A DNA stretch of 64,000 bases from Eledone cirrhosa (lineage: Eukaryota), in NCBI GenBank assembly GCA_964016885.1, contig OZ024742.1:228780001-228844000 (forward strand). Reading direction: 5' to 3'. The notes beneath the pieces were generated by a model that made no database searches, was not told the DNA's origin, and worked only from the letters and a program-made list of their open reading frames with translations. The translations under genes were made by a program, and so were the position numbers. Positions 4,780 to 64,000 of this stretch are shown here, piece after piece (position 1 is the first letter of the stretch; each line of letters begins with the position of its first letter).

Positions 4780-4781
<2 letters not shown>

Positions 4782-4927
4782 CGAAGGAAATGTGGTAAGG
4801 AACCAGATGGACCATAACGCACCAAAGTACTCAATATTTAGGTAGTAGAGTGGGTAATAGGAACCAGTAAGACCCCAGAATTAGCCGTCGAAACGGCTTG
4901 AGCTCAGCCGTCGGGTTCTTACTGGTT

Positions 4928-4930
<3 letters not shown>
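4780..4930. mobile_element. 138-bp (TA)n-inserted element, fold-back copy
   Basis: Same sequence at 6985-7113, 7560-7744, 9541-9601, 15811-16016, 16169-16256, 16338-16577, 30328-30390, 30742-30820, 37701-37895, 40279-40473 and 50290-50326. Confidence 0.85.
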
Positions 4931-7560: not shown

Positions 7561-7993
7561 GAAAATGTATAAGCCCGACGGCAGAGCTCAAGCCGTTTCG
7601 ACGGCCAGTCTAGAAATAGTCGTCGAAACGGCTTGAGCTCTGCCGTCGGGGTTATACATTTTCCTATTACCCACTCTACTACCCTAAGTATCGAGTAGTC
7701 TGGTGCGTTATGGTCCAAGTGGTTCCTTACCACACTTCGTTCGATATATATATATATAGAGAGAGAGAAAGAGAGCGTGCAGGGGAGAGAGAGAGTGGAA
7801 AAGCGCGAGAGAGAAAGAAGGAGAGAGCGAGAGGGAGAGAGAGAAAGAAAGAGAGAGCGAGAGAGGGAGAGAGAAAGAAAGAGAGAGCGAGAAAGAGAGA
7901 GAGAGAAAGAAAGAGAGAGCGAGAGCGGGAGCGAGAAAGAGAGAGAAAGAGAGAGAAGGAGAGAGAAATAGAGAGAGGAAGAGAGGGAGATAG

Positions 7994-8034
<41 letters not shown>

Positions 8035-8160
8035 TCCGGTAATATGGTGAAAGCAGCGATTCTTAGCTTAGAGCAAATAAATATTTGCTCTGCGGGTTTA
8101 TATATAGTATTTTATATACGAGCCCGCTTTGGATTTTGGTTTATAGTTATTATTACTATA
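8035..8160 (+). mobile_element. PLE terminal-repeat fragment related to the 58.8-62.3 kb element
   Basis: GAAAGCAGCGATTCTTAGCTT...AATAAATATTTGCTCTGCGG...GAGCCCGCTTTGGATTTTGG matches the reverse complement of 62040-62170. Inverted copy at 9605-9735. Confidence 0.7.
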
Positions 8161-8355
8161 TATTTGTCTCGCTCGCTTTACGCGATATTACTTGTCCCAA
8201 TAGCTTTATTTAGCTATTGCTCGCACCAACTGGAGGTATATGATTTTCAAAGCGATGAAATACCGATGATAGTTGGCAAATCACTGATGAAGGATTAATT
8301 TTTTTCCTATGTAACCCATGTGCAACCACGCAGCACTCAATTCTTCTCATATTTT

Positions 8356-9541: not shown

Positions 9542-9730
9542 ACGTAGGAGTTGTGGTAAGGAACCAGATGGGCCTTAACGCACCAGAGTACTCAATACTT
9601 AATATATAGTAATAATAACTATGAAGACCAAAATCCAAAGCGGGCTCGTATATAAAAAAATATATATAAACCCGCAGAGCAAATATTTATTTGCTCTAAG
9701 CTAAGAATCGGTGCTTTCACCCTATTACGG

Positions 9731-9796
<66 letters not shown>

Positions 9797-9811: not shown

Positions 9812-9995
<184 letters not shown>

Positions 9996-10090
9996 GTGGA
10001 ACACTGGAAGGTAATATCCGTAGTGGTAGAGCACTCAGTCCAAGGGAAGGGTTAGGTGGAAGTGGTTACACAACAGTTAGTTCACCATAT

Positions 10091-10128
10091 CGAGAACAAT
10101 TGTTTCACCTTCGTGGATCTTCAGCTCG
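10091..10128 (-). ncRNA. Minimal type I hammerhead ribozyme
   Basis: Reverse complement: cgag CTGAAGA t cc acgaa gg t GAAA CAATTG TT ctcg. Palindromic ACAATTGT. Lies in an insert (about 9992-10400) abutting (TA)n. Confidence 0.75.
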
Positions 10129-10686
10129 GGATGTGTATGTTTATACAACCGTACGAACGCGCATGCGCAGAAACTCGGTCACTTCACACAGGCAATACTA
10201 GACTGCGTGCGGGAGGTGTAAGGGAGATAACTGCGAAAGTCCGGAAAGTTTTTAGGTTGAAAATAAAATTTAAAAAAATTAAAAATAAAATTACAAAGAA
10301 TCAGTCCGGAGCCTTGTAGTTATGCAATAGATGTTTGGTGACGTGTGGACAACGTGAGAAAAATTCACTTCTCGTGTTTAGGCAATCACTATTGCGTAAT
10401 CTGTCTCTCTCTATATATAATAAAGATGAAATAAAGATGGTTATAAGAGTTCCATATATTTTATTATACGTATTTTGAATACAAAATCATGCTGGGACAG
10501 ATGTTGTGTTCTACAAGATCTGTCCCAGGATGATTTTGTATTCAAAATACGTATAATAAAATATATGGAACTCTTATAACCATCTTTATTTCATCTTTAT
10601 TATATATACTCCAGGTCTTCCAACTGTTGAGTGCTACTTATCTGATATATTCATAGTTTTATTATTCTACAATATTATTCACCTTC

Positions 10687-14800: not shown

Positions 14801-15810
14801 TGGGTTTAGGTTCGTTGCGCAGGATCTCGGGTAAGTGGCTTCTACTATCGATTCAGGCTAACCAATGTGAGGGAAATCTGATAGAAGGAGACTAGGCGGA
14901 AGCCCGTCATATATATATATCTCGCTCTGTTCGATCAACAAGATCCCAGACCTCATTCACTTGCCGAGTGGAGTAGATCCCTTCAAATCGGACCAAGGAA
15001 ACAATGTATCTATTGGTCTTTCCATTGCTGATACTATCTACCTGTCGAAACTCCTGGTAGATGGAGTAACGTGAAATAAAGTATCTTGCTGAAGGACATA
15101 ATGCATCACCCGGTCCGATTGCGAATCCCACTCTGCCACTCGCCGTACATAGATATTATAAATATAATATAATATAACGGTTAAGATTTTTATGATAAAC
15201 TTAACGTAAATGATACATTTATATATATACATTTATATACATTTATATATATACTGATACATTTATATATATACATTTATATACATTTATATATATTTGA
15301 CAGAAATATATACATTTGAAATGGTGCGTTCCAACGAAAATGACAATAAAAATAGTAGATAAATACATATATATAATAGTTGGTGACGAAAAACGTGGAC
15401 AGAGGCGTTTATTCGATTTTCTCAACTATTATTTATAGTGATCGACTATCATGGTCGTTTGCATTGGGACGTACTTATTTCAAATTCTAAAATTTCCCAA
15501 TGTTTACTAAGTCATCTGCTTTGTTTATAGACTTAGAGAGAGGTAGAGAGAGAGAGAGTGGGATAGAGAAAGAGAGAAAGAGAGAGCGAGTGAGATAGAG
15601 ATAGAGAGAGAGGAGAGAGAGACACATAACCACAGACACACGCATCTACATGTATGTAGAGAGAGAGAGACAAAGAGAGAGAGAGAGAAAGAGAGAGAGG
15701 GAGAGAGGGAAGAGTTAGAGAGAGAGAGAGAGAGGGGGAAGAGAGAGGGAGAGGAAGAGAGAGAGTGAGTGAAAGAGAGAGTAAGATATATACATCTCTC
15801 TATATATATA

Positions 15811-16015
15811 GGAAAATGTATAACTCCCACGGCAGAGCTCAAGCCATTTCGACGGCTATTTCTGGACAACTATTCTGAGTCCAGAAATAGCCGTCGAAAC
15901 GGCTTGAGCTCTGCCGTCGGGATCATACATTTTCCTATTTCCCACCCTACTACCCTAAGTATTGAGTACTCTGGCGCGTTATGGTTCATCTGGTTCCTTA
16001 CCACAACTCCTTCGT

Positions 16016-16141: not shown

Positions 16142-16250
16142 TGTATATATATATGGATATATATATATAACGAAGGAGTTGTGGTAAGGAACCAGGTGGA
16201 CCATAAATAGCCGTCGAAACGGCTTGAGCTCTGCCGTCGGGATCATACAT

Positions 16251-16316
<66 letters not shown>

Positions 16317-16573
16317 TGTATATATTTGTATATATATAACGAAGGAGGTGTGGTAAGGAACCAGATGGACCATAACACACCAGAGTACTCAATACTTAGG
16401 GTAGTAGAGTGGGTAATAGGAAAAAGTTTTACCTCGACGGCAGAGCTCGAGCCGTTTCGACGGCTATTTCTGGACTAAATTAGGAATTTTTATTACTACG
16501 CTAAAAATGTTTAAATTAGTCCAGAAATAGCCGTCGAAACGACTTGAGCTCTGCCGTCGGGGTAAAACTTTTT

Positions 16574-16577
<4 letters not shown>
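15811..16577. mobile_element. Three clustered fold-back copies of the 138-bp element
   Basis: Full-length unit GTCCAGAAATAGCCGTCG...CTCCTTCGTT at 15879-16016. Each copy is bounded by (TA)n. Confidence 0.85.
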
Positions 16578-16645
<68 letters not shown>

Positions 16646-20592: not shown

Positions 20593-23500
20593 ATGACCTC
20601 ACTCAGAATAGGCAGCATAAATGCGCGTGGCTTGGGGTCGTCATGGAAGCAGGGCCACCTGCTCAACGACCTCAGGTCACTAAACATAGATTTAGTGGCC
20701 ATCAGCGAGACCAGAAACTCCGAAGCACGGGCCTTCGCACCGATCTTCGGCGGCTACGATGTGTACGCATCTCCCAGCCGTCCTGGATCGGGGGGAGAGT
20801 TGCTGTGCTTTTTCGGAGAGGTTTGGATCTCGCCATACGGGCTATCTTCCTGAACCCAGAATGTAATTTGGTGGTGCTGGACGTGACCAGCGGAGACGGG
20901 CAAGCTTTCAGGCTAGTGGCCGTCTATGCCCCGACAGGAGCAGGGCGGCCTGATTTCTTCCGGCGTCTGGAGACCTTTCTTGGAACGTCCCGCTCTTTAG
21001 TGTTAGTGGGCGACTGGAACGGGATCGTAGATGCACGCTGGGACTGTGTGGGATAGGGGAGGAGGGTGCAAGAGCCTCACCAACCTGCTCAGGCGTTTTG
21101 AACTGTCTGACAGGTACCGATTGGATTTCCCGAATGTGCCAATGTGGACTTGGACAAATCGCATAGGGTCATCCAGATCATATCTAGATAGAGTATTTTG
21201 TAGGGAAATAGATAGGTTTAGCATAGGCTGTCCACAATTCAAGATAGTCAGCTACACGGACCACAAATTCATGATCTGTATGCTTGACTTAGATAGGCTT
21301 CATAGACGAGGACCCGGCTACTGGAAGCTAAACGCGTCCTTACCAACGCGCAAGGCCTACAGAGACCGGATTAGCGAACTAGTTAAGCGGGCGTTGACGG
21401 GGGCCATCATCAACCACAAGTGGTGGTTTGCTCTGAAAAGAACGATTAGAATAGAGTCCATTAGGTTTAGTAAGGCTTTAGCAATAGAGAAAAATAGAGC
21501 AGAGGGAGAACTAGTTAGAAAATTAGACGAGGCGCTTAGCAAAGGCATCGCGACTGACGTACTTGCGGCGAAATTGGCCCTTGACCAATTCTTCAATGCA
21601 AAGCACGAAGGCTGCGTTGTCAGAGCTAGGGTGCGTGCTCTCAGACACGAGGGGACGAAAGCCGTTCAATGGGCCCGAGTGGCGGAGGCGCGTCGTGGCA
21701 ACAAAGCCACGATCCGGTCTTTGGTGGACCACGACGGGCGCATGCTACTCGATCCCGGGCAAATGTGTGAAGCTTTTCAGCGACACTTCGCTCAGCTGTT
21801 CGGGTGCAGCGGTGGGCCGGGTCGAGGGATGGACTTTAGTGTCTACCTCGAAGGACTGCCGCGGCTCTCGGCCACTGAGGCGGAGTGTTGCGAAAAGCCG
21901 ATAACAGCCGCTGAAGTAAGGGAGGCAATGACTGGCTGCACAAGCGGTAAATCGCCTGGTTTGGATGGTCTGCCCTATGAACTTTACGTACAGATGCCAG
22001 ACTTGTACGGAGGCCTCTTGGCGGACGTCTACTGGAACTGGCAACAGAACGGGAGAATTCCCAGCTCTGTGAGTCGAGGAGCGGTGGCACTGCAGAGAAA
22101 GGATCCGAACAAGGGGGAAACATAGATAATTTCAGGCCCATAACTCTGCTAAATACAGAGTTCAAGATTTTGGCCAAGGTGCTAGCAAAGAGATTGGCGC
22201 TTGTCGTTGGTGGTCTGGTGGGAGAGGCTCAGACATGCACCATTCCCGACAGATCCATCCACGACAACCTCCACCTCATGCGATACATCGTAGAGAGGGT
22301 AGCTAGGGACCTGGCACGGGTGGGTCCTTGATCAATTTAGATCAGTCGAAAGCTTTCGATAGGGTCGACCATCGTTACCTAGCGGCAGTCCTGAGGGCGC
22401 CTGGCTTTGGGCCCGTCTTCAGAGGCTGGATCGCTGCCATGCACAGCCACATCTGCTCTGTGGTGAGAGTGAACGGTCACCTTTCCGAACCGTTCAACAT
22501 CATGCGCTCGGCCCGCCAAGGATGTCCCCTCTCGTTCCTCTTGTACGTATTGACTCTCGAGCCATTACTGCACAAACTGGAGACGTTGAGGGGCGTCCCG
22601 CGCGAACTAGGATGCGGAAGATCCGTGTCAGCATATGCGGATGATGTCACCGTAGTGGTGTCGAACGCCAAACACATCGAGGCGATCGGCACTACACTAA
22701 GAGAATACGAAGCGGTGACAGGAGCAATGATCAACCAGGAAAAGTCAGTGGGCCTGCAGCTCGGCACCTGGAGAGGCAGGTCCATGCCGTCCAACAGCGT
22801 CGTCGGACGCTGGACGGACGGACCGGTTAAAGTGCTAGGGGTCTGGTTCGGTCCGGACCTCCAGACGGACAAAAACCGGGACGAGGTGACGAGCAGGGTG
22901 GCTTCTCTCACCCAGAAATGGGCGGAGAGGAAGCTATCCCTGAAAGGTCGAGCGAAGGTGGCTAACGCGTACATCGCGTCTGTCATCTGCTACCGCCTGA
23001 CCGTCGTACCTTGTCCTAAGCCCCGCCTGACTGCGCTGGAGCGTTTGCTCTTTCGCTTTTTGTGGAAGGGACGCGCTCCGATGGTCAGGCGGTCCATCTG
23101 TTGTCCACACCCACTACGTGGAGGGCTGGGCATGCCGTGGCTGATGATGCGAAGACACGCGCTCAGGCTACGACATCTCCTCCTCTTCCTCGACGTTGAT
23201 CAGGTGTGGTCGCCGTTTGCTAGACACGTATTTCCCCAGCTCGTTTCCTTGACGGAGCTGCAGTCCTGGGTCAAGCGAAGACTGAGAGGGAGCGCCTGGA
23301 GACTGGAATGTCTTCAGGCGCTCAAAGCCCTCGACCAATCGGGCAATGTGATCGGTGGAAACTCCACCTCGGCGTTCTATAGAGGATTAGTGGAGGGGAA
23401 GAGCGACGACGTACTTGGGGAAAATCTAGGCGTCGACGAAAATCAACTAGCCAATCTCTTCGGAAGAACTTTCGGGCCAGGGCCTATGGACAACTTCCAG

Positions 23501-23960
23501 AAATCTCTGGCCTGGCAGTGCTACCGAGGAGCCATGCCAGTTCGGGATAAACTCTACAGGCATGGAGGTGCCGTCAGCCGGGCATGTCCGAGATGCGCGC
23601 AGGGCGACGAAACCGTCCTGCACGCACTCGTCCAGTGTCTGAAAATAGCTGACTTGTGGGTTTATGTCGAACACCTGCTGTCGCGTGTAGGACGGATCCG
23701 GCTATCATCTGAGTCCATCGTGAGGATTGCCCCGCCGGGAAGGGCAGGCGAAAGAGATAGTATGGTGAACACGTTTGAAAAGGTTGAAGACGAGCACTTA
23801 CCTCTTCGGTGATGCCCTGATTAACTTTTTCAAATTTCATTTGAAAAGGAAAATCAGGGTAGAGAGGGAAATGCTCTCTTCCCAGCATTTTGTTGAAAGA
23901 TGGGTGAGAGAAGCAAGTATGGCCCGAGTGAATGGGCCTACTCTGAGTATGTGTCTGTAA
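20593..23960 (+). pseudogene. LINE ORF2: apurinic endonuclease, reverse transcriptase and Zn finger, about 5 frameshifts
   Basis: GSINARGL, AISET, VYAP, VGDWN, SYLDRV, TDH (APE); KSPGLDGLP, LDQSKAFDRV, RQGCPLS, AYADD (RT); GGLG; CPRC..ETVLHALVQC. Confidence 0.92.
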
Positions 23961-24794: not shown

Positions 24795-25346
24795 TGTGTG
24801 TATTTATGTCAGCTCACTCTTCAGTGCTACTGGTAACAAGTAACCCAGTACAACGTGTGTATGGTCGGGTCCTCGGCGACTAAACCGGCAACCCCACCCT
24901 TGGCAATGAGGATGATTTTAGACAACTTGCGGGATGAAAAACAAGACCCGTCAAAGGGCGGACGAATTCAGGAGAGTCAACGGCCATCCAATAAAGATTT
25001 TTTTGTTGTGGAGTGAGGGACTCCTAGTCTTCATTAAGACATCTCTGTGGGGGAAGGTCACTCTGATATAAAACCTGTGACTTCCTTTTTATCCAATGAT
25101 GTAGACTAGTTCTACTTTTGGGTAAATGCATTCGATGTTCAAACAGTGAGAATGGCCCTGTGCAAAGCCTTTCCACACTTAAAAAAATATGAAGCACAGG
25201 CATCGCTTGATATGTGAAATTGTTTGCGATGCTTGGCATTGTGGGCCATAGAGAAATCCTTAGTAGGACAAAAATGCCGCATCCGTGATGTTCATGCTTA
25301 AGTATCAAATGATAGCATTACACGAAATTGAGTTGCAGCCATCACC

Positions 25347-26427: not shown

Positions 26428-26837
26428 AATATGGTTTTATAAATATAGTTTCCATTTGTTAATATCGTATATATATATATATATAGTAATAATAAATGTG
26501 AAGACAATATATATATAAAATAGACTATGTGTGTGTCTGTCTGTTTCCGCGTAACTTCTACAACTTGCAACCGATTTTCTTTAAATTTGGCACAAACATG
26601 CGTTATGCTCCTGACTTGCGTACGAACTCATTACATGTTCATGTTGTGTCTACTGCGCCCTCTATAAGAGAAAACCCGACTAAAAAAAATCATTTTTGTC
26701 AATAACTTCTAGTTTACAGTTTTTTTATCCATATACTACTTATAGACCGTACTAACACATTCAATTATTTCATCGGCTTAAACTATAGATCAAAGGTTTA
26801 ACAATAAGTCGTTTTACAGTCTTTCATTTTACGGAAC

Positions 26838-27037
26838 NNNNNNNNNNNNNNNNNNNNNNNNNNNNNNNNNNNNNNNNNNNNNNNNNNNNNNNNNNNNNNN
26901 NNNNNNNNNNNNNNNNNNNNNNNNNNNNNNNNNNNNNNNNNNNNNNNNNNNNNNNNNNNNNNNNNNNNNNNNNNNNNNNNNNNNNNNNNNNNNNNNNNNN
27001 NNNNNNNNNNNNNNNNNNNNNNNNNNNNNNNNNNNNN
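26838..27037. other. Assembly gap (200 N)
   Basis: Run of N characters. Confidence 0.99.
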
Positions 27038-28702
27038 GGAGACATTTAGGTTGAAAGGAGGGTTGAAAAATGTATTATTTCTTCTTCTATTTTTGCTTTT
27101 AGTGTTTGGTGTGTTGCTTCCTCCTAAGGCCCCACAGTAGTTTCCATGGTAATGGTTACTTCCGGTGGCACCCTCCGCTTTGGTGTACTTGTGGTTGCTA
27201 TTCCTATTATTAGATTTCCTCATGGACATGTTGTGCGAGATGATGTTGTAGCTATGTGTTTTCTTAGGTAGGAACTCAATTTCTATATTATGGTCAGAGC
27301 TAGCTAATGCTTGATTGTAATATTGTGAGTTTTTGCTAAATATGTTTGCGTCATAGGACAGACTAGAGATTCTATTGGACACCCCCTTAGAGATAGAGTT
27401 TAATATTGATCTAGGGTGATTAGACTTGGTATCTACGTAAATAAGTTTCTCATTAGGCTTATGGAAAGGTGTATATATTTTTGAGTCTAGGTATAGTGTG
27501 GCGTCTAGGAAGTTAACATTTTTAGTGTTTTTGTCCATGGTGATACTAAGGTTAAAGTTTTTGAATGTCTTATGCAGTTGTTTTCTAGTTCTTTCTATAT
27601 TAAATTTTTTATATTCTATGAGTAGAAGTGCATCATCGCGGTACAAACCACCGTTGAGGTAAGGGAGGTCTTTATGGATTTCATTGAGGAGGTATAGGCC
27701 GACCAAATCAGTGACCTGCGCCGAGTCACTAGATCCCATGGTTATGTCGAAGTTGTTGTGCGTATCCTTGCGTGTCCATAGTTGGTCCTCGAAGGTGATT
27801 ATGGTTTTACGGGCCGCAAGGATGACATCAACCTGGGCTCTAGTCAGGTCGCTATTGGTCATGGCCATGATAAGTGCCTTATTTAATAGGATAGGGGAAA
27901 TAGAGGTGTAGTATGAATTGATATCAAATTGAATACATTTTTTGTTCTTATTATTCTTGATATCCTTGAACCATTCAATTACTTCACCCGTATTTCCCCA
28001 TTGTTTAAGGTGTATCTTGTGTTTAATTTGTGGGATGATTTTATCCAAAATCTTCTTGCTGATAATACCAATGTCGGACTTGGAAGGGCAGATAAGTCTT
28101 ATCGTGGGGTTGCTGATGAAGTTCTCCTTATGGTCCTTCAGAGAGAATCTAGGGGGGTTCGGAGTGAAAGGTTGTGTATGCCTCTGTAGTCCTAGTTTAG
28201 ACACTATATTATAACCCTCTACATTAATATCTTCTAAGTTTTTCAAGGTGGTTTTTTTGTAGCTTTTATGTAGTTCATTATATATAAACTTTCTATAAGT
28301 AATATAATCTAGGCTGTATATGTTATTAGTTTTATCTGCGTGTACAATAATTTTATTACTAGTTTTGAATCCATTAATAGAAGTGTTAAGTTTGTTTAAG
28401 AAGGTGTTGCTTCTAATATGGTGCTTATTGTATTTAATGTTCTTAACTAGTTTAACTAGGTCATTTTCAAAGGAGTTAAGTAGAGTGTTATGAGGGGGGC
28501 TTTTAAAGGTTTTAAAGCCGAAGGAGTCAAAATTGTTAGTATTATTCAAGTTGTTAGATTTGTTTCTATCATAATGGAATGTCCTCCATCTCACTCTATT
28601 GATAAATGAATTTACACTGTTGATCAGCAATTTCTCATATGTATTCCTGGATGGTATTGGTATGTTCTTGGTTGACATGGGGAATTGGTCTTTGATTAGC
28701 AT
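27038..28702 (-). CDS. Penelope-like element reverse transcriptase, open to the gap; the endonuclease is presumably lost in the gap
   Basis: KNIPIPS..RVRWR, ADKTNN, FDINSYYTSI, ITMGS, GLYRDD, NFLD, SNHP, RISSLS, FNPPF. Colinear with the 59.9-62.0 kb element. No stop codon over about 555 codons. Confidence 0.9.
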
Positions 28703-28951
28703 ATTGGCAATATTATATGTCAGCTCAACGATATGGAGCAGTTAATAGTATTAGTTATACTATTTATGGTTATGTAAATACAAATCCCCAAGCAGTTGTA
28801 AGTATTTTACACACACCCTAAATAGTGGTAGGCAGTAATGTATTACTACCTTATTACCAGTAAGTTAAGTAGCTCAATGTAAAAACATCAGATGATTTAC
28901 AGAGCAGTTATATGAAATATAAGAATCAAAGAACTGCTCAAAACATTATTG

Positions 28952-29337: not shown

Positions 29338-30155
<818 letters not shown>

Positions 30156-37700: not shown

Positions 37701-37892
37701 AACGAAGGAAATGTGGTAAGGAACCAGATGGACCATAACGCACCAAAGTACTCAATACTTGAGGTAGTAGAGTGGGTAATAGGAACCAGTAAGACCCCGA
37801 CAGCTGAGCTCAAGCCGTTTCGACGGCTAATTCTGGACTCCAGAATTAGCCGTCGAAACGGCTTGAGCTCAGCTGTCGGGGTCTTACTGGTT

Positions 37893-37895
<3 letters not shown>
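37701..37895. mobile_element. Fold-back copy of the 138-bp element
   Basis: Full minus arm plus a short plus arm, meeting at CTGGACTCCAG, flanked by (TA)n. Confidence 0.88.
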
Positions 37896-37965
<70 letters not shown>

Positions 37966-40233: not shown

Positions 40234-40278
<45 letters not shown>

Positions 40279-40281
<3 letters not shown>

Positions 40282-40472
40282 AACGAGTAGGACCCCGACG
40301 GCTGAGCTCAAGCCGTTTCGACGGCTAATTCTTGCGTCCAGAATTAGCTGTCGAAACGGCTTGAGCTCAGGCGTCGGGGTCCTACTCGTTCCTATTACCC
40401 ACTCTACTACCCTAAGTATTGAGTACTTTGGTGCGTTATGGTCCATCTGGTTCCTTACCACATTTCCTTCGT

Positions 40473-50535: not shown

Positions 50536-50538
<3 letters not shown>

Positions 50539-51825
50539 GGAGTATTGAAGTTTGCTTGAAGCATTGTGGAATAATAGGTAAATATCTTTAAGTCGTTTGG
50601 AAGCCTCGACAATGCAAATGGGTAAATCTCCGGGTAACAAGATCCGGTGGTGGAGAGAGAGATGTAAGTGGGTGTATGTTGAGATGCGTGGTGTGTATAA
50701 GGAAAGAGTATAAAGGATAAAATTAAAATAAGAACACGAGAGAGAGTTACCTTGAGAGAGATTTAATTGTCCCTATATATTTCAGATTCACATCCATCAA
50801 CTGGGGTTTTTTCCCGGGGTGGGGGAAAGGTTGTCTGTCGGAAAGGTGCGAAACGAAACGCGTCCTCCGCTCTTTGTTGTTTTGAATATCTGAGGTATTC
50901 AGCAGGGCGCGCGTGCGCGTGAAATGTGGTCGGCCGGGCAGAGGTCAGCGGCCGAATGTGGGAGTGGGGTGGTGCTAGCTGTCAGTCCATTCTCTGCCTG
51001 TTTGTTAAATGTTACTGTGTGTCTGTGTGTGCGTGTGTTGTTGTCTCGCTTGAGTGTGTGTGTGTGTTGTTGCCATGTTCCTCTGTATTGGCAGTGTAGT
51101 ATGTTCGTATGGTGGAATGCTACTGTGTGCGTGTGCGTGTGCGTGTGTAGTTGTCTCGTTTGTGTGTGTGTGTGCGTGTGTTGCTGCATCGTTTGTTAAC
51201 TTAAACCAGCCACCTCATTTCGCTTCTCTCGGATCGATTGTTTATTTGCAGTTCAAGGCGTTTGATAAAAAGCACGTCCTTGCTACGTAACGTGCCGACG
51301 TTTCTTTCAGTCGCTAGAATTGTGACAATGGGCCTTCCGTCTTTGTTTCCGCATTTGTCTATGTGTTTCCGGAAAGACGAGGCCCTGGTTTTAGTGTGTT
51401 CCTTGATCCGGATGTGCAAAGGTCGGATTGTGCTACCTATATAGTATTGGTTATCCTGTCACATTCTATCTTATACACGACGTATCTGCTGAATACCTCA
51501 GATATTCAAAACAACAAACAGCGGAGGACGCGTTTCGCACCTTTCCGACAGACAACCTTTCCCCCACCCCGGAAAAAACCCCCAGTTGATGGATGTGAAT
51601 CCGAAATATATAGGGACAATTAAATCTCTCCCAAGGTAACTCTCTCTCGTGTTCTTATTTTTATTTTATCCTTTATACTCTTTCCTTCATTCTTCTACAC
51701 GTCTTATACACACCACGCATCTCAACGTACACCCACTTACATCTCTCTCTCCACCACCGGATCTTGTTACCCGGAGATTTACCCATTTGCATTGTCGAGG
51801 CTTCCAAACAACTTAAAGATATTTA

Positions 51826-51828
<3 letters not shown>
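50536..51828 (-). mobile_element. 5'-truncated Penelope-type element (GIY-YIG C-terminal half at about 51201-51450) with an inverted terminal repeat
   Basis: YIGSTIRPLHIRIKEH..SFRKHIDKC..IN. Arms 50577-50905 and 51486-51828 are inverted; both outer ends lie in (TA)n. Confidence 0.85.
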
Positions 51829-54419: not shown

Positions 54420-55330
54420 CCAGACACGGAAAAATTGCCTGCCCTTCCGGGCCAAAAGAAGGCTGCGGTATGATCTTCACTATAGATCGTCAATAGCCGA
54501 ATCCATCCTGCACGCGGCAACGGCTGTTCGACATAACTCCACAAATCAATAATGCCCGGACACTGGATAAGTGCGTGCAGAACACTTTCGTTGCTCTGAC
54601 AGCACTTCCGAACCCGTAGAGTTTATATTTAACCAGCAGCACCCCCGCCCCGGAAGCTCTGCCAAGCGAGGGGTTTCTGAATGTTATCCAAAGTCCTCCG
54701 GACAGACTGGTCAGTTCAACTTTCTCGAGGCCCAGAGCCTCTCCGAGTGCGTCGATGCACATACCCTCCACTAATCCTCTATAGAACTCAAGAGTGGAAG
54801 ATCCACTGATCGCATTGCCCGCCTGATAGAGGTCAGTGAACGCCAAATGCCAGGCGCAAGGTCCTGGTCTCTTCTTGACCCAGGACTGCAGCTCAGTCAA
54901 AGAGACGAGATGTGGAAAGGCCTGTCTCACAAACGGCGACCACACCTGTTGACCGTTTAGGCAGAATACCTGGAGATGTCGAAGCCCCAGCGCATGTTTG
55001 GGCATCATTAACCTTGGCACGCCCAGCCCTCCGCGTCGAGGGTGCTGGCAGCAGACGGACCGCCTCACCAATGGAGCCTGTCCTTTTTACAGGAATTTGA
55101 AGAGGAGATGTTCCAATTTGGTGAGGCTCTAACGGATTCAAGGCAATATTCCCGTTCTGCTGTCAGTTTCAGTAGAACGCTGCGGTGAGATCGGAGAACA
55201 AGTCTGGCATATATACGTAAATCTCGTTGGGCATTCCATCCAAACCGGGTGACTTGCGCCTCGTGTAGCAGACTAGGGCATCCCGAATCTCAGTTGAAGT
55301 TATCGGTCTTTCGCAGCTCCCAGCATCAGC
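54420..55330 (-). mobile_element. Older, deleted fragment of the Tx1/L1-type family seen at 18-24 kb
   Basis: VRRSVCCQHPRRGGLGVPRLMM..QVWSPFVRQAFPHLVSLTELQSWVK matches ORF2 at about 23090-23280. Confidence 0.85.
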
Positions 55331-57921: not shown

Positions 57922-58750
57922 GGTGTTGTTGTTGTTGTTGTTGTTGTTGTTTCTTTTCTCATTATTGAACATTGATAGATAATACTTGCCTCTAACTTTT
58001 CAATTTTGTTCAGTTTTCGATTAGGAAATCAAAAATGGAACAACAAAAGCAAACCAGAATAGAAGCGTGAATATTCTTATGGACTCAGGTATTTTCCGTG
58101 CAAACGGCCATGATAATCTCACAGGTGTTTTGTTCAAATTAATACTATGATAAAAGGACCCCCTTCTATTATTATCCTTCATCCTTTTCTCTCTTATACT
58201 TTTTACTTCGTTCCATTTCTTTATTTTTCCTGCTTAAAAAAATAAAATTCTTTGTTTTTACCTTTTATCTTCTTCAAAATTATTATTTCTTATCAGATGA
58301 TGCTCGCAGTCATTTCACAGAAAATGAGAACTAGTGAGATACTGTTTATTTAAAAAGGAAAATAGATAATCAAGAATGTCTCTAAAGTTTTACTAACCTA
58401 ATGCTTCTTTTGTATATCTTATATATTGGCAACAGACATATAACCTCCCCACCGGAGGAACTTCCAGCCACATGAGGATTAACAATCCCAATCCTCATCT
58501 ACTCCCTCTTCTGTCATCCATTACCCTTTATCTACAGATCTGTCTCGCCAAAAACATAATTTTACATTTACCCACAATCCACCTCTCCGGTAAACATTAG
58601 TGATTCAATAAAGGATGAAAGACAGATGTGGTCAGGCCATACAATAGGTGGGGTGGACCAGTTAGGCCTGTTAGTATAAGCCGAGGACTTACAAGCCATG
58701 ATACTCATGCTTAAGTATAAAAAAAAGGCATTACTAGAAATCGAGTTGCA

Positions 58751-58796
<46 letters not shown>

Positions 58797-58800
<4 letters not shown>

Positions 58801-61800
58801 TAAAATAACAGATTAAAGTTTAAGCAAAGAATCGCTGCTTTTACTCTTAACGGGATCTTCTGAAACTAACAAAGTCAATCTGTGAACGCAGAAGTGAATA
58901 TTTCAAAAAACGTTGCAACCGGAGGAAGACAGGAAGACGATACTTTGGATCGTGGAAACGTTCCCTGGTAAAGAACGGGAAAAAACGAATATAATACGTC
59001 ATTAATTGGAGAGGTGAAAAACAATTACACGCAAACACAAAACCACGTTTATGGTATAAAAGAAGCCGTAGACTAAAATTCTATTAGGTGGTTCATAGAG
59101 ACGTTCTCTGGCAATGAACGAAAAAAACGAAGATAATACGTCATATGTGGAGCGGGGAGAACAATTGGTGGCAAAGACAAAACCACGCAAATGGTATAAC
59201 TGAATTCGTAGACTAAAATTCTAACTAGGAAACCGAATGATTCTCGGCTTCAGAGTTAAGAATAAAGTAAATAAAATACAGAGGTAATTGAAGTTAAATA
59301 AATACATACACGCATCCATATACGTACATACACAAGCATACGCGAAAACACTCGCCATAGGTATACAAATACACGCACGTAAAAAAAAGAAAAGAAAAAC
59401 CCGCACGCACATAAAGAACCCACGCAACGCCTGTACTCGCACGCATACAAAATTATACGCAAAGTACACATAAAAATATATATTGAACATATATATATAT
59501 ATGTGTTTGTGTGTGCGTGTATACATATAATTAAATAAACGTATATAAATAACTAAATACGTATATAACAAGCGCACACACATACCTACATGTAAATACA
59601 CATGTTTGGAGACGTACGTCAACCAAAACACAAAGTACACATATACACACACCCTACATACGTACGAACCCGCATACACACACCGCATATGTACCAGAAT
59701 ATATAATATATACGCCATAACATATACAATCAAATATGCGTACGAGAAAGTATACGTACCTACACAAAACATACAGGTAATATATACTTACCTATACAAA
59801 TAAGTAATGGTATAAACATAACATATACTTAGCTACCACATCAAGTCGTAAAATATCCGTGTATAGATCGTACTATCTGTTAGGGTATAATGTGGGGCTG
59901 TAATACAGGAAAGTTTTGTGCAACTTATGTTTACAAGCCGAAATTGCCTCAGATTTTTTGTTTAAGATGTTGACTTTGGCGTAGAGTATTTCCAGGGCCT
60001 CAGTGGCGCAGAGGTCACATGGTCTTTTATTTCCGTTATACGATCTAGCCCTAGCTAGGATCTCCCAGTGTAACTTATATTGGGTGTGGTTGTCTTTTAG
60101 ACTCCAGATATAAGCTGAAAGTGACGTCATATTCCTTCTTAAAGGGTAACGAAAAGAATGGGTATGCATGTAAAGACGCTGCTTGAATCTATTGGCGGTT
60201 AACCCTATGTAGGCCCTACGGGACGTGGGTGTTTCAACCTTACATTTGTAGACAATGTTACTAGAGAGGCATTTCCTGGATAGGGGCAGTCAACCCGATT
60301 CCTATAATTACAGTTAGTACTAACTAGAGGGTTGCACGTGTTCCTACGGCTAGGTAGTTTAGCTAAATTTGAAGCTGTGATGTTATGTGCAAGGTTAGGA
60401 GTCGTATAGTAAGACATTTTAATAGTATTTTTATTAAAAATGTTACTATATTTATGTGTAGGGGGAAAATGCTTCGTAATAAGGGATAGAAAGATCTTAG
60501 CTAATGGTTTGGCCACCTCCATATTATATGGTGGGTTATACCATATAATGCGTCGGGATCTATTTCTTCTAGGTCTATTCTCGTACTCTGTATAAGCTAC
60601 CTTATCGACAAATCCACTCCGAGCAAGAGCTTCATTTTAATATATGGAATGGTCGTTGAAAATATGCTCGTTAGTAGATAGACAGGAAAGCCTCAAAGAA
60701 ACGTTTCTTACCAAATTCTTGGTTATGCTGGCAGGATGGTTAGAATGCTTACTTATGTAATTAAGCGTATCATTCGGCTTTCTATACGGGTAATGCAAGC
60801 CATTCGATAAATTGAGGGTAACGTCGAGGTAATTACGACCGAGAGGTTGGTCTCAACCTGTATGGAGAGGTTGAAGCCTTTAAAGAATGATGTGAGTTCT
60901 TTTGTGAACCTGTCGCAAGCACGTGGGCAACACTTAGTCATAGTCAAAAGACCATCATCACGGTACAAACCACCGCACACATTGGGGAATTCGTCCTTGA
61001 TAGAGAAAAGAAGGAAAAGGCTGATAAGATCAGTAACCTCCGCAGAATCGCTGGCGCCCATACTCACGTCGAATGGGATACTATTAGATTTTTTAATCCA
61101 AATAGAGTCGTCGAAATTAATCACCGACTTACGGGCATTGAGGATGACATCAAGTTCGAAATCCTTAACCACAGTGAGTGTTTTAGCGAAATTGATAACT
61201 CTAAGGAGAAGTGGTAAAGTGATGGAGGAGTAGTAATTATATAAAACGGCAATGTTCCTTGTTGCATATGCCGTTGAACCAATCAATCACCGCGAAAGAA
61301 TTGTTCCACAGTGCAAGAAGGGCCAAACTTCTAATTTCAGGTATAATTCGATCAAGAATCCTTTTACTAAGTCTACCTAAATCGGACTTCGTAGGGTTAA
61401 GTAGCCGAACAGAGGTGTTGTTCGGAAAATTGGATTTGTGATCCTTCAGGGTAAAGTGGGGGAGAAATAGGGTCCAGAGGTTCAATCCGGTCCAGAATAT
61501 TGAGATCGGAGGTGATTTTAAACCCAGCATCGTTGATTTCATTAATGACGCTCCGATTAGTTTTACAGTAATCCTTAGTTACAGCATTATGTAGCAGTTG
61601 ATGGTAAGTACTGCGCTCCACTTAATATAGATTGCCAGTTTTGTCGCAATGGACATACACGGCATTAGAATCCTTAATAGAACGAATTCTATTTTTCAGG
61701 TCCTGCTGGAAGGAATTGCTCCTATTCCGAAATTTGATACTCCGTATGAGTTCCAAGACATCATTTTCGAAGGGTTACTCGGAGGGTTATTATAGGTTTT

Positions 61801-62305
61801 AAACCCAAATTTATCCTGTTTGTTGTCAGCTTTTCCCTGATTATCGAAATAAAAGGCACGCCAACGCAACTTTTTAATGAACGCGTCTGTTTTCTGTATC
61901 ATGAGTTTTAGGTATGTTTTCCTGCTTGGTACGGGTATGTTCTTTGCAGAAATATTCAGATGTTGTTTCTGCATGATGAATATAAGTCAATAGAGTGCTC
62001 AACCGAAGGAGCCAAATAGTAATAATAATATATTTGAACACTAAAATCCAAAGAGGGCTCGATAAGGATAAATATATATAAAATATATAAGAACCGTAGA
62101 GCAAATATTTATTAAAATAACAGATTAAAGTTTAAGCAAAGAATCGCTGCTTTCATACTTAACAGGATCTTCTGAAACTAACAAAGTCAATCTGTGAAAG
62201 CACTCGCCATAGGTATACAAATACACGCACGTACACACAAAAAAACCCCCAAAACCCACAAGCACATACAGAACCCACGCAACGCCTGTACCCGCACGCA
62301 TACGA
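58797..62305 (-). mobile_element. Near-complete Penelope-like element with direct terminal repeats
   Basis: 58797-58885 matches 62107-62197 and 59349-59450 matches 62201-62303. The 3' end abuts (TA)n. HHR-like motifs at 58809-58882 and 62121-62194. Confidence 0.88.
59873..61974 (-). pseudogene. PLE RT plus C-terminal GIY-YIG endonuclease, several frameshifts
   Basis: KNIPVPS..KLRWRA, DKTGN, GLYRDDGL, KHFPPTHKY..FNKNTIKMSY, CNYRNRVDCP linker, AYIGL, TSLSAYIW, CDLC..E, LNKKSE..CKH. Confidence 0.9.
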
Positions 62306-63127
62306 AATGTATAACCTGTAAAATAAGCCCCCATATTAACTGTAAAACTAGAAATGTAGTATATAGCATAAGATGTACTGAAGGACAATGTAGAGACAAA
62401 AATATAGTGTACATAGGTGAGACAGCTCGTAGTGTAGGGGAACGGATAAATGAACACTGGCGAGATCTTCAAGATAGTAAAGAATCATCTGTACTCTACC
62501 AACATGCTAAAATAGAACATAAGGGTAAATTAGAGAACATAGAAATAAAAATAGAATCTACAACCAGAAAAGACGCAATGTTTAGACAAATGACAGAGGC
62601 AATAAACATAAAAGAATTACAACCAAAATTAAATAGAAAATATGAGTGGAACAGCAACATCACAACTTACAATTAAGGACAAAATGAAAACACACACGCA
62701 CACAGAACAAACAATCAGCCGGTAACATGTAAAGAAACAAATAAATAAACGAATATAAACACACACAGATACCCGGATGTGGCGCATGCGCAGACTGAGC
62801 ACACAACACACACACAGAAACAAAATGGCGTAGGACAGAACAAAGGAGAGGCACAAAAACAAAGAAAAGAATCCCCAGTCACTGAAGAGGTCACAGAATG
62901 TGTGACCAAAGAACTTTGACAATATATAAACAACCATCTGGTTGTGGAACCACCAACCAACCGGAAATTTATAAATTCCTCAATTTATAAATTTATTATA
63001 ATAAATTGAAGTGAAAGCAACTGGTACGTGTGTTTCTTATTGGCAACATGACCCTCCCAAAGTATAACAATATCGGTTTCAACACACGTTTTCAGATAAA
63101 GAATCTTGCTAAACAAATTCAGAAACG

Positions 63128-63130
<3 letters not shown>
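62305..63130 (+). mobile_element. 3' fragment of a different PLE family: GIY-YIG (to stop at 62676) plus terminal repeat with a damaged HHR (about 62877-62920)
   Basis: CITC..NCKTRNVVYSIRC..C..YIGETARS..ERINEH..SVLYQH..H..RQMTEA..LNRKYEW. The 3' end lies in (TA)n. Confidence 0.88.
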
Positions 63131-63177
<47 letters not shown>

Positions 63178-63180
<3 letters not shown>

Positions 63181-64000
63181 AATATAGACATAGAATATTC
63201 GAAAATATTCTGTATGTTTATAATAAACATTTTGAAGACCTAATCGCTATAGAATAGAATACGTCACGTATTACAATTAGATTCTCGATAAAAGCAAGGG
63301 AAGTAAGTCTACGCGTTTCATTCTTGTTAGAATTCATCAGGACTACATATCCAGTGCTTTTATCGAGAATGACACAGCTAGAGACTTATAGAATACTTAG
63401 CTGTGTACAGGAACTGGTTTGAAAGAGCGGTTGCCGGTCCGGCAGAAATTAGAAATTGGAATAAATGCTCTGAAATAGCGATATATATGTGAATATAGAC
63501 ATAGAATATTCGAAAATATTCTGTATGTTTATAATAAACATTTTGAAGACCTAATCGCTATAGAATAGAATACGTCACGTATTACAATTAGATTCTCGAT
63601 AAAAGCAAGGGAAGTAAGTCTACGCGTTTCATTCTTGTTAGAATTCATCAGGACTACATATCCAGTGCTTTTATCGAGAATGACACAGCTAGAGACTTAT
63701 AGAATACTTAGCTGTGTACAGGAACTGGTTTGAAAGAGCGGTTGCCGGTCCGGCAGAAATTAGAAATTGGAATAAATGCTCTGAAATAGCGATATATATG
63801 TGAATATAGACATAGAATATTCGAAAATATTCTGTATGTTTATAATAAACATTTTGAAGACCTAATCGCTATAGAATAGAATACGTCACGTATTACAATT
63901 AGATTCTCGATAAAAGCAAGGGAAGTAAGTCTACGCGTTTCATTCTTGTTAGAATTCATCAGGACTACATATCCAGTGCTTTTATCGAGAATGACACAGC
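63178..64000 (-). repeat. Tandem array of a 311-bp HHR-containing unit (retrozyme-like), at least 2.6 copies, running off the window
   Basis: Units start at 63178, 63489 and 63800 and are identical by eye. Confidence 0.93.
63306..63344 (-). ncRNA. Type I hammerhead ribozyme, intact; repeated at 63617-63655 and 63928-63966
   Basis: Reverse complement: agtc CTGATGA attct aaca agaat GAAA CGCG TA gact. Perfect core, 5-bp stem II, palindromic ACGCGT. Confidence 0.9.

Follow-up and report, generated by a model that had tools for sequence, protein, structure and literature searches.

How do two Penelope-like elements (PLEs) of different clades come to lie fused by their 5′ ends, each facing outward into a (TA)n tract? 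The question is raised by a locus in a 64,000-nucleotide stretch of the Eledone cirrhosa genome (assembly GCA_964016885.1, contig OZ024742.1, positions 228,780,001 to 228,844,000), called the window below and numbered from its first letter. Element A lies on the minus strand and element B on the plus strand, with their 3′ ends outward and (TA)n tracts on either side (58757–58800 and 63130–63177); the 4,333 bp separating these tracts hold no long simple-repeat block. A preliminary description of the sequence had proposed that one cut site was filled from both sides using two RNAs, that this favors twin priming over snap-back of the complementary DNA (cDNA), and that it implies trans-mobilization between PLE families. 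The fusion itself is confirmed: PLEs of different clades are joined head-to-head between TA tracts. The structure is real and unusual; a single locus establishes neither twin priming nor trans-mobilization.

Element A Is a Partial Tandem of a Hydra-Clade PLE

Element A was classified by homologues and motifs, since no Pfam domain was found in the four pieces of A, nor in the second Hydra open reading frame (ORF) of the window. Frameshift-aware alignment with two full-length relatives (P0002 and P0006) gives 40–42% identity over 61974 to 59924 with GLYRDD present, which bears out the earlier reading of A as a minus-strand element with a GLYRDD reverse transcriptase (RT) and its 3′ end in (TA)n at 58797. 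The Hydra clade is marked by an RWK-type motif, DKT, a short Cys linker, and a C-terminal endonuclease (EN) with CxxC and CxH (PMC8557442). In A, KLRWRAF aligns with the RWKAF of relatives with a K to R change, the RWK type replacing GxKF/Y, and in HCDKTGN the DKG is changed to DKT. The linker CNYRNRVDC fits the Hydra spacing CxCX5C, its second Cys being a Tyr in this decayed copy, and the EN reads CDLC...E...N...CKH, that is, CxxC and CxH around E and N, without CCHH. By these motifs, its (TA)n target and its homologues, A is assigned to the Hydra clade. It departs from the clade in its size, a 3.3-kb unit with a 1.1-kb 3′ untranslated region (UTR) against generally <3 kb (PMC8557442), in its degenerate hammerhead core, and in an ORF broken in seven places (frameshifts near 61772, 61459, 61239, 60832, and 60272; stops near 61622 and 60637).

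The preliminary description took both 5′ ends to be truncated, which holds for B but is too simple for A. Element A has a full, if decayed, ORF preceded upstream by a ∼205-bp partial copy of its pseudo-long terminal repeat (pLTR), and is thus a partial tandem rather than a plain truncated copy. This upstream copy is without 454 bp held by the downstream copy; the gap, at ∼62196–62202, is bounded by an imperfect ∼7-nt repeat and lies 110 bp from the junction with B. A spliced intron was rejected as its source, as there is no GT-AG fit on the minus strand. The 3′ UTR contains a 140-bp tandem duplication (58946–59223, 79%) and two internal TA runs, (TA)4 at 59476–59483 and (TA)7 at 59489–59502. 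Motif scans and Rfam revealed no canonical hammerhead in A, both pLTR copies having only a degenerate core; a hammerhead-like stretch near 58830–58870 was called by eye, with no Rfam hit there.

The 62016–62113 segment matches Hydra-type pLTR fragments at 8076–8159 and 9606–9691 (76%). These belong to two inverted fragments, 8034–8164 and 9601–9733, which are 94% identical to each other and whose 5′ ends join (AG)n instead of (TA)n. A second Hydra-clade family occupies 26798–28741 on the minus strand; its ORF runs without stops up to a 200-N gap (26838–27037) and is 30–45% identical to A in tblastn pieces.

Element B Is Nematis-Like and Ends at Its Family's 3′ Nucleotide

Element B retains the end of an ORF, with PF01541 matching its EN at E 3e-5 and a stop codon at 62674–62676. 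The EN has the CCHH pattern (C-x4-C...H...H), followed by the stop and the 3′ UTR; full-length relatives carry an RT upstream. The 5′ truncation falls within the linker, so B has lost the first Cys of a CX2-5CxxC element that the relatives keep, and the remaining CxxC-x7-C spacing is that of Nematis_C4 and Nematis_Cr. The closest named protein is XP_052825841.1 of Octopus bimaculoides (57% over 96 aa). The match P0012 was discarded as spurious. Comparison of the B EN with A gives no significant match (best tblastn E 1.4), and the pLTRs of A and B have no detectable similarity. These features suggest that B is a Nematis-like PLE of another clade than A. It resembles C-terminal-EN PLEs of the Nematis/Neptune type in its CCHH EN, its linker of CxxC, seven residues and C, its type I hammerhead, a pLTR that includes the ORF start, and its tail, and is unlike them in that no RT is left by which the clade could be settled.

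The terminal repeat of B, into which the opening 27 codons of B's ORF extend, is matched by the two arms of a palindrome at 29417–30034. The 3′ end of B falls on the same nucleotide as the left-arm end of this palindrome, the right arm being without the ∼56-bp tail. Together with the EN match, this sustains the earlier account of B as a plus-strand element with a distinct GIY-YIG and terminal repeat and its 3′ end in (TA)n at 63130. Given that a PLE RT initiates at defined internal sites of its own RNA (PMC11167929), the ending of B at the exact 3′ nucleotide of its family indicates that it was probably primed by its own family's RT. The hammerhead at 62882–62911 has a 7-bp stem II and one altered core base, and its core is complete in the copy at 29824–29852. 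None of the hammerhead regions had a significant folding energy (z −1.9 to +0.2), and Rfam at gathering score returned 0 matches in the window. An E-value scan of 58700–64000 gave just sub-threshold miRNA-like hits on TA/CA-rich DNA, plus HH9 in a 311-bp array next to B.

The Junction Lies Within B's Linker and Has No TA Tract

The preliminary description placed the meeting of the 5′ ends at 62305–62312 with no microsatellite between them, and the alignments agree. The upstream pLTR copy of A matches the downstream copy through 62308, with a single mismatch at 62304, and B is certain from 62308–62309, its in-frame CxxC starting at 62308. Past the junction-equivalent position, A's downstream pLTR copy continues with a TATA that is one base out of register with the TATA of B. 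The latter (62310–62313) is coding sequence of B; its reading as a remnant of a TA tract was rejected, since it sits in the in-frame CxxC codons. A start of B further left, suggested by a tblastn extension of P0001 to 62191, was rejected because the DNA there is 86% identical to the 3′ UTR of A. We also rejected a chimeric protein from the open frame that spans the junction (62182–62676), which has no ATG before the last third of the EN. The possible microhomology at the junction amounts to an overlap of 1 to ∼10 nt. This overlap does not discriminate between origins, since it is expected under twin priming and deletion repair alike. The window contains no second copy of the A/B junction.

The 64 kb hold 87 simple-repeat blocks, 70 of them with TA. 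On the far side of the left (TA)n tract lies the end of an unrelated repeat, which matches 25283–25343. The right tract is shared with the 311-bp tandem array, which conceals the far flank up to the window edge; its hammerhead scores 17.8 bits against HH9 (E 1.2), under the gathering score. The anatomy of the locus, the difference in clade between its elements, their ends, and the position of the junction are established by these alignments and motifs, and the coordinates are collected in Table 1.

Table 1. Features of the A/B locus and its reference copy in window coordinates
Feature	Position	Strand	Remarks
Left (TA)n, targeted by the 3′ end of A	58757–58796	.	
A 3′ UTR/downstream pLTR	58797–59872	−	
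A ORF, Hydra-clade RT and C-terminal GIY-YIG-type EN	59873–61974	−	
A 5′ leader	61975–62100	−	
A partial upstream pLTR	62101–62308	−	58797–58890 joined to 59344–59453
5′-to-5′ junction, no (TA)n tract	62304–62313	.	possible overlap 1 to ∼10 nt (AAAT followed by TATA one base out of step)
B truncated ORF end	62308–62676	+	CxxC-x7-C linker, GIY-YIG EN with CCHH, 122 codons, no internal stop
B 3′ UTR and pLTR	62677–63129	+	type I hammerhead, ORF start ATG 63048, ∼56-bp tail to 63129
Right (TA)n, targeted by the 3′ end of B	63130–63177	.	
311-bp tandem array, neighbor outside the fusion	63170–64000	−	retrozyme-like; identical units (100%), each with one hammerhead core
Reference B-family fold-back	29417–30034	.	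arms differ at 2/273 sites; tail on left arm only

The Two Elements Are of Compatible Age

The pLTR pair of A differs at 15 of 192 sites (7.8%, confidence interval (CI) 4.4–12.6), or at 11 of 177 without a poly-A/C stretch, giving a range of 6–8%; this figure is decay summed over two copies. B differs from an arm of the young palindrome at 29417–30034 at 21 of 307 sites (6.8%, CI 4.3–10.3), a figure taken against a near-undecayed relative of unknown subfamily. The large age difference that the preliminary description had named as a possible explanation of the adjacency was not found. The ages of A and B are compatible, in the sense that just the absence of a large gap is visible. Broken codons (seven in ∼683 for A, none in 122 for B) are uninformative for dating, with P(0) = 0.30.

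The Locus Has the Layout of a PLE Unit Built from Two Clades

For PLEs, earlier work has described inverted copies of one family, tails, insertion at TA targets, and secondary insertion on the opposite strand. The standard unit of EN-bearing (EN+) PLEs is a partial tandem with an adjacent inverted, 5′-truncated copy and an optional tail (PMC8557442, PMC3846280). The A/B locus reproduces this unit in its partial upstream pLTR, full ORF and downstream pLTR, in its tailed, inverted, truncated element at the 5′ side, which abuts the partial pLTR of A at 62308, and in its microsatellite target. It departs from the standard unit in that the inverted element comes from another clade: A and B share neither nucleotide nor EN similarity, and the junction forms neither an inverted repeat nor a palindrome. 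Both ends of the unit lie in (TA)n, with the far flank outside the window.

Two other arrangements invite comparison. In L1 twin priming, two cDNAs grow from the two ends of a target site and are joined head-to-head by short complementarity, as they may have been here, but they derive from one RNA with an internal second primer and leave a 5′ inversion (bioRxiv 10.1101/2024.08.27.596794); the halves of the A/B locus have their own 3′ ends and belong to different families. Among nested PLEs, Pen2a lies within Pen3 in the opposite orientation, and a microhomology 5′ junction of Pen2 has no target-site duplication (PMC3846280); opposite strands and an AT-rich simple target are shared with the A/B locus, as a microhomology join at the 5′ side may be. 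The host element of a nested pair continues on the far side (PMC3846280), whereas at the A/B locus the far side is hidden by the tandem array and the window edge. Full-text searches of open-licence papers turned up no PLE fold-back that crosses clades and lacks a spacer.

Most Local Fold-Backs Use One Template

The masked window has 20 inverted-repeat centers, 10 of them with loops of ≤37 nt. The window also has a short non-coding fold-back family, D (4780–4929, 7561–7743, 15808–16015, 16170–16254, 16339–16578, 37702–37897, and 40277–40472), whose units turn at nearly one position each time with variable loops. A truncated D copy abuts the Hydra-type fragment at 9601–9733 across a short TA remnant. 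Fifteen arms could be aligned from 19 hits, the other four having no shared stretch. Both arms are of the same variant type in four of five palindromic pairs, though several types occur in the window, which argues that the usual local fold-back uses one template. The arms of the fifth pair (15808–16015) may be of different subfamilies, on two sites only.

We also compared nine distant Hydra loci from a prokaryotic genome scan, which lie on contigs of metagenome-assembled genomes and are presumably eukaryotic contaminants. In locus L001 (1–3734), two Hydra arms stand head-to-head; over 452 codons they differ at 62 synonymous but just 19 non-synonymous sites, with a ratio of the proportions of non-synonymous to synonymous differences (pN/pS) of 0.078; the arms could represent two template lineages, conversion, an assembly mosaic, or themselves two insertions. 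Locus L006 (280–1454, 7386–8006) shows an L1-type 5′ inversion, in which the inverted half ends exactly at the start of the forward half in a nearby intact copy; several PLE types are piled between TA tracts there. Arm identity is 100% in L007, 99.3% in L005, and 94.5% in L003, and L002, L004, and L008 are too short for their ends to show. None of the nine loci showed a cross-clade fusion.

How the Fusion May Have Formed

We favor, with moderate confidence, two separate target-primed insertions that shared a single TA target, facing opposite ways and each made by its own family's RT and EN, with the spacer lost by microhomology-mediated joining. This grading and those of the other readings are our judgement and were not computed, and the number of events, their order, and the spacer deletion are what we infer from the structure. 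The break of A beside its own internal (TA)7, together with the microhomology-flanked 454-bp gap near the junction, favors two insertions over a single event. The junction-equivalent position in A, 59453, is 22 bp from (TA)4 and 35 bp from the sole tract of at least five TA units in the 3.3-kb monomer; positions within 35–45 bp left of (TA)7 make up 1.1–1.4% of the monomer and 3.3–4.3% of the 3′ UTR, a proximity noticed post hoc. In this neighborhood a TA-targeting B would be expected to cut, or the cDNA of A to join a TA target. Both breaks, in A and in B, fall at a TATA, which occurs at 1–3% of positions. Two insertions are further suggested by the different repeat that each outer (TA)n tract already has on its far side, and by other joins of unrelated repeats in the window, which retain just 3–5 TA units (9601, 10411, 6406). 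The head-to-head D units without a palindromic center (4780–4929 and 16170–16254) and the agreement of B's 3′ end with that of its family also count in its favor, and L009, in which a Hydra upstream pLTR sits directly on (TA)n, is read as the precursor state. Both opposite-strand PLE-into-PLE insertion and microhomology 5′ joining without target-site duplication have precedent (PMC3846280).

In the most parsimonious sequence of events, A would insert at the left (TA)n, its cDNA passing through one unit into the next pLTR copy and stopping either at or close to the (TA)7 inside A itself or where it met what was left of the target tract. The EN of B would later nick the opposite strand of this TA run, copying of B then beginning at its normal tail start. 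The truncated 5′ end of B would then be attached leftward at AAAT/TATA, with removal of the remaining TA and of ∼20–50 bp from A. Insertion of B before A, or deletion of the spacer at a later time, would yield the same sequence.

Several observations weigh against two insertions. The layout matches the canonical PLE unit down to the tail on the inverted arm, and the junction lacks any TA remnant, unlike the head-to-tail joins at 9601, 10411, and 6406. No age difference between A and B was detected (Fisher p 0.72, the two comparisons not being strictly equivalent). The D units without centers and the 454-bp gap could equally be produced during insertion, and L001 suggests that Hydra fold-backs can join two different templates.

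These points bear on the proposal that PLE fold-backs can form with both ends of one (TA)n break primed on separate RNAs, here as a cross-clade, two-template co-integration of a Hydra and a Nematis-like PLE with L001 as a within-clade parallel; we regard this as possible but doubtful. Filling of one site from both sides by two RNAs, as first proposed, survives to the extent that snap-back alone is excluded, since it cannot yield a fold-back with arms from different templates, and that no large age gap was found; with just this locus, one event and a pair of insertions that lost their spacer cannot be told apart. In the form we consider unlikely, a double-strand break was primed at both ends by two ribonucleoproteins, one Hydra and one B-family, each using the RNA of its own element, after which microhomology let the two cDNA ends anneal, with no trans-mobilization. 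Canonical PLE geometry, zero spacer, and compatible ages speak for it; in vitro, one PLE protein cuts both strands and extends them (PMC11167929), and synchronous L1 events are reported to exchange cDNAs in tumours (bioRxiv 10.1101/2024.08.27.596794). The arms of L001 would derive from two lineages under selection, barring a mosaic contig or conversion, L006 carries an L1-type inversion in a Hydra copy, and in one of five D fold-backs (15808–16015) the arms differ at two sites common to other copies. Such an event demands, however, that two distant clades be active together at a single break in the same nucleus, and leaves A's break beside (TA)7 unexplained. The matched arms of four of five D fold-backs and of the B palindrome, and those of L007, identical over 758 bp, run counter to it, as do the 0/9 count of cross-clade fusions in the fetched Hydra loci (three too short to show ends) and the nature of L001, a contaminant contig in a metagenome-assembled genome that could be an assembly mosaic. 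With four of five D fold-backs having same-variant arms, the window does not carry the general claim of twin priming over snap-back.

The stronger form of co-integration, in which one RT, probably that of A as a predicted dimer, copied both RNAs by trans priming of B RNA or by template switch, would be cross-clade trans-mobilization; we think it very unlikely, and it makes up a small part of what we grant co-integration as a whole. PLE ORFs do mobilize non-autonomous partners and host sequence in trans (PMC3846280; PMC9977147), and a dimer is predicted for one PLE protein. Against this, B ends at its family's exact tail nucleotide, with the start site depending on the element's own RNA region, and the A and B pLTRs have no detectable similarity; PMC3846280 reports no cross-mobilization, though between EN+ and EN− types. 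The implication of trans-mobilization consequently drops away, as two ribonucleoproteins acting in cis would give the same 3′ end. Slightly less probable still is that the junction arose once elsewhere and reached this locus as one unit, through insertion of a copied read-through RNA that contained A and, upstream of it, B in antisense. PLEs are able to take up DNA that flanks them (PMC3846280), and the structural difference between A's two pLTRs could come from a master locus, but the window has no second junction copy and the question of origin is merely moved elsewhere. Least probable of all is an assembly or library chimera. The window does contain the 200-N gap, and the 100%-identical tandem array adjoins the locus, but the ≤∼10 nt common at the join are too little for an overlap mis-join, and the outer ends are natural element ends.

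The origin of head-to-head inverted PLE copies has prompted a call for an in vitro system (PMC8557442) and arguments for self-priming (PMC3846280). If co-integration is true, loci of this kind offer a sequence-level test of that origin. The question is countable in any TA-rich genome by tracing the origin of fold-back arms with pN/pS and subfamily variants. A genome-wide excess of joins between different templates would show two-ended priming on separate RNAs, plus a route by which PLE clades could exchange modules; were such joins no commoner than neighbors that lose a spacer, the A/B locus would be ordinary pile-up in TA tracts.

Other Repeats in the Window

Further PLE-related sequences occur in the window. 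A fragment at 50536–51827 has a decayed GIY-YIG (51443–51228, a weak tblastn hit) and an inverted pLTR with 91% identical arms, with both ends in (TA)n. The 9992–10686 segment is a hammerhead-bearing fragment with a weak hit to the Hydra EN end (E 0.008), just (TA)4 away from a fold-back of another family. At 1651–2639 lies a nested palindrome of ∼1 kb (92%) with a hammerhead-like hairpin in each arm. Other repeats include a long interspersed element-type RT (RVT_1, zf-RVT) at 22307–23812 on the plus strand, with a 68% related fragment at 54490–55086 on the minus strand, and a repeat of ∼150–190 bp resembling short interspersed elements, present in >10 copies.

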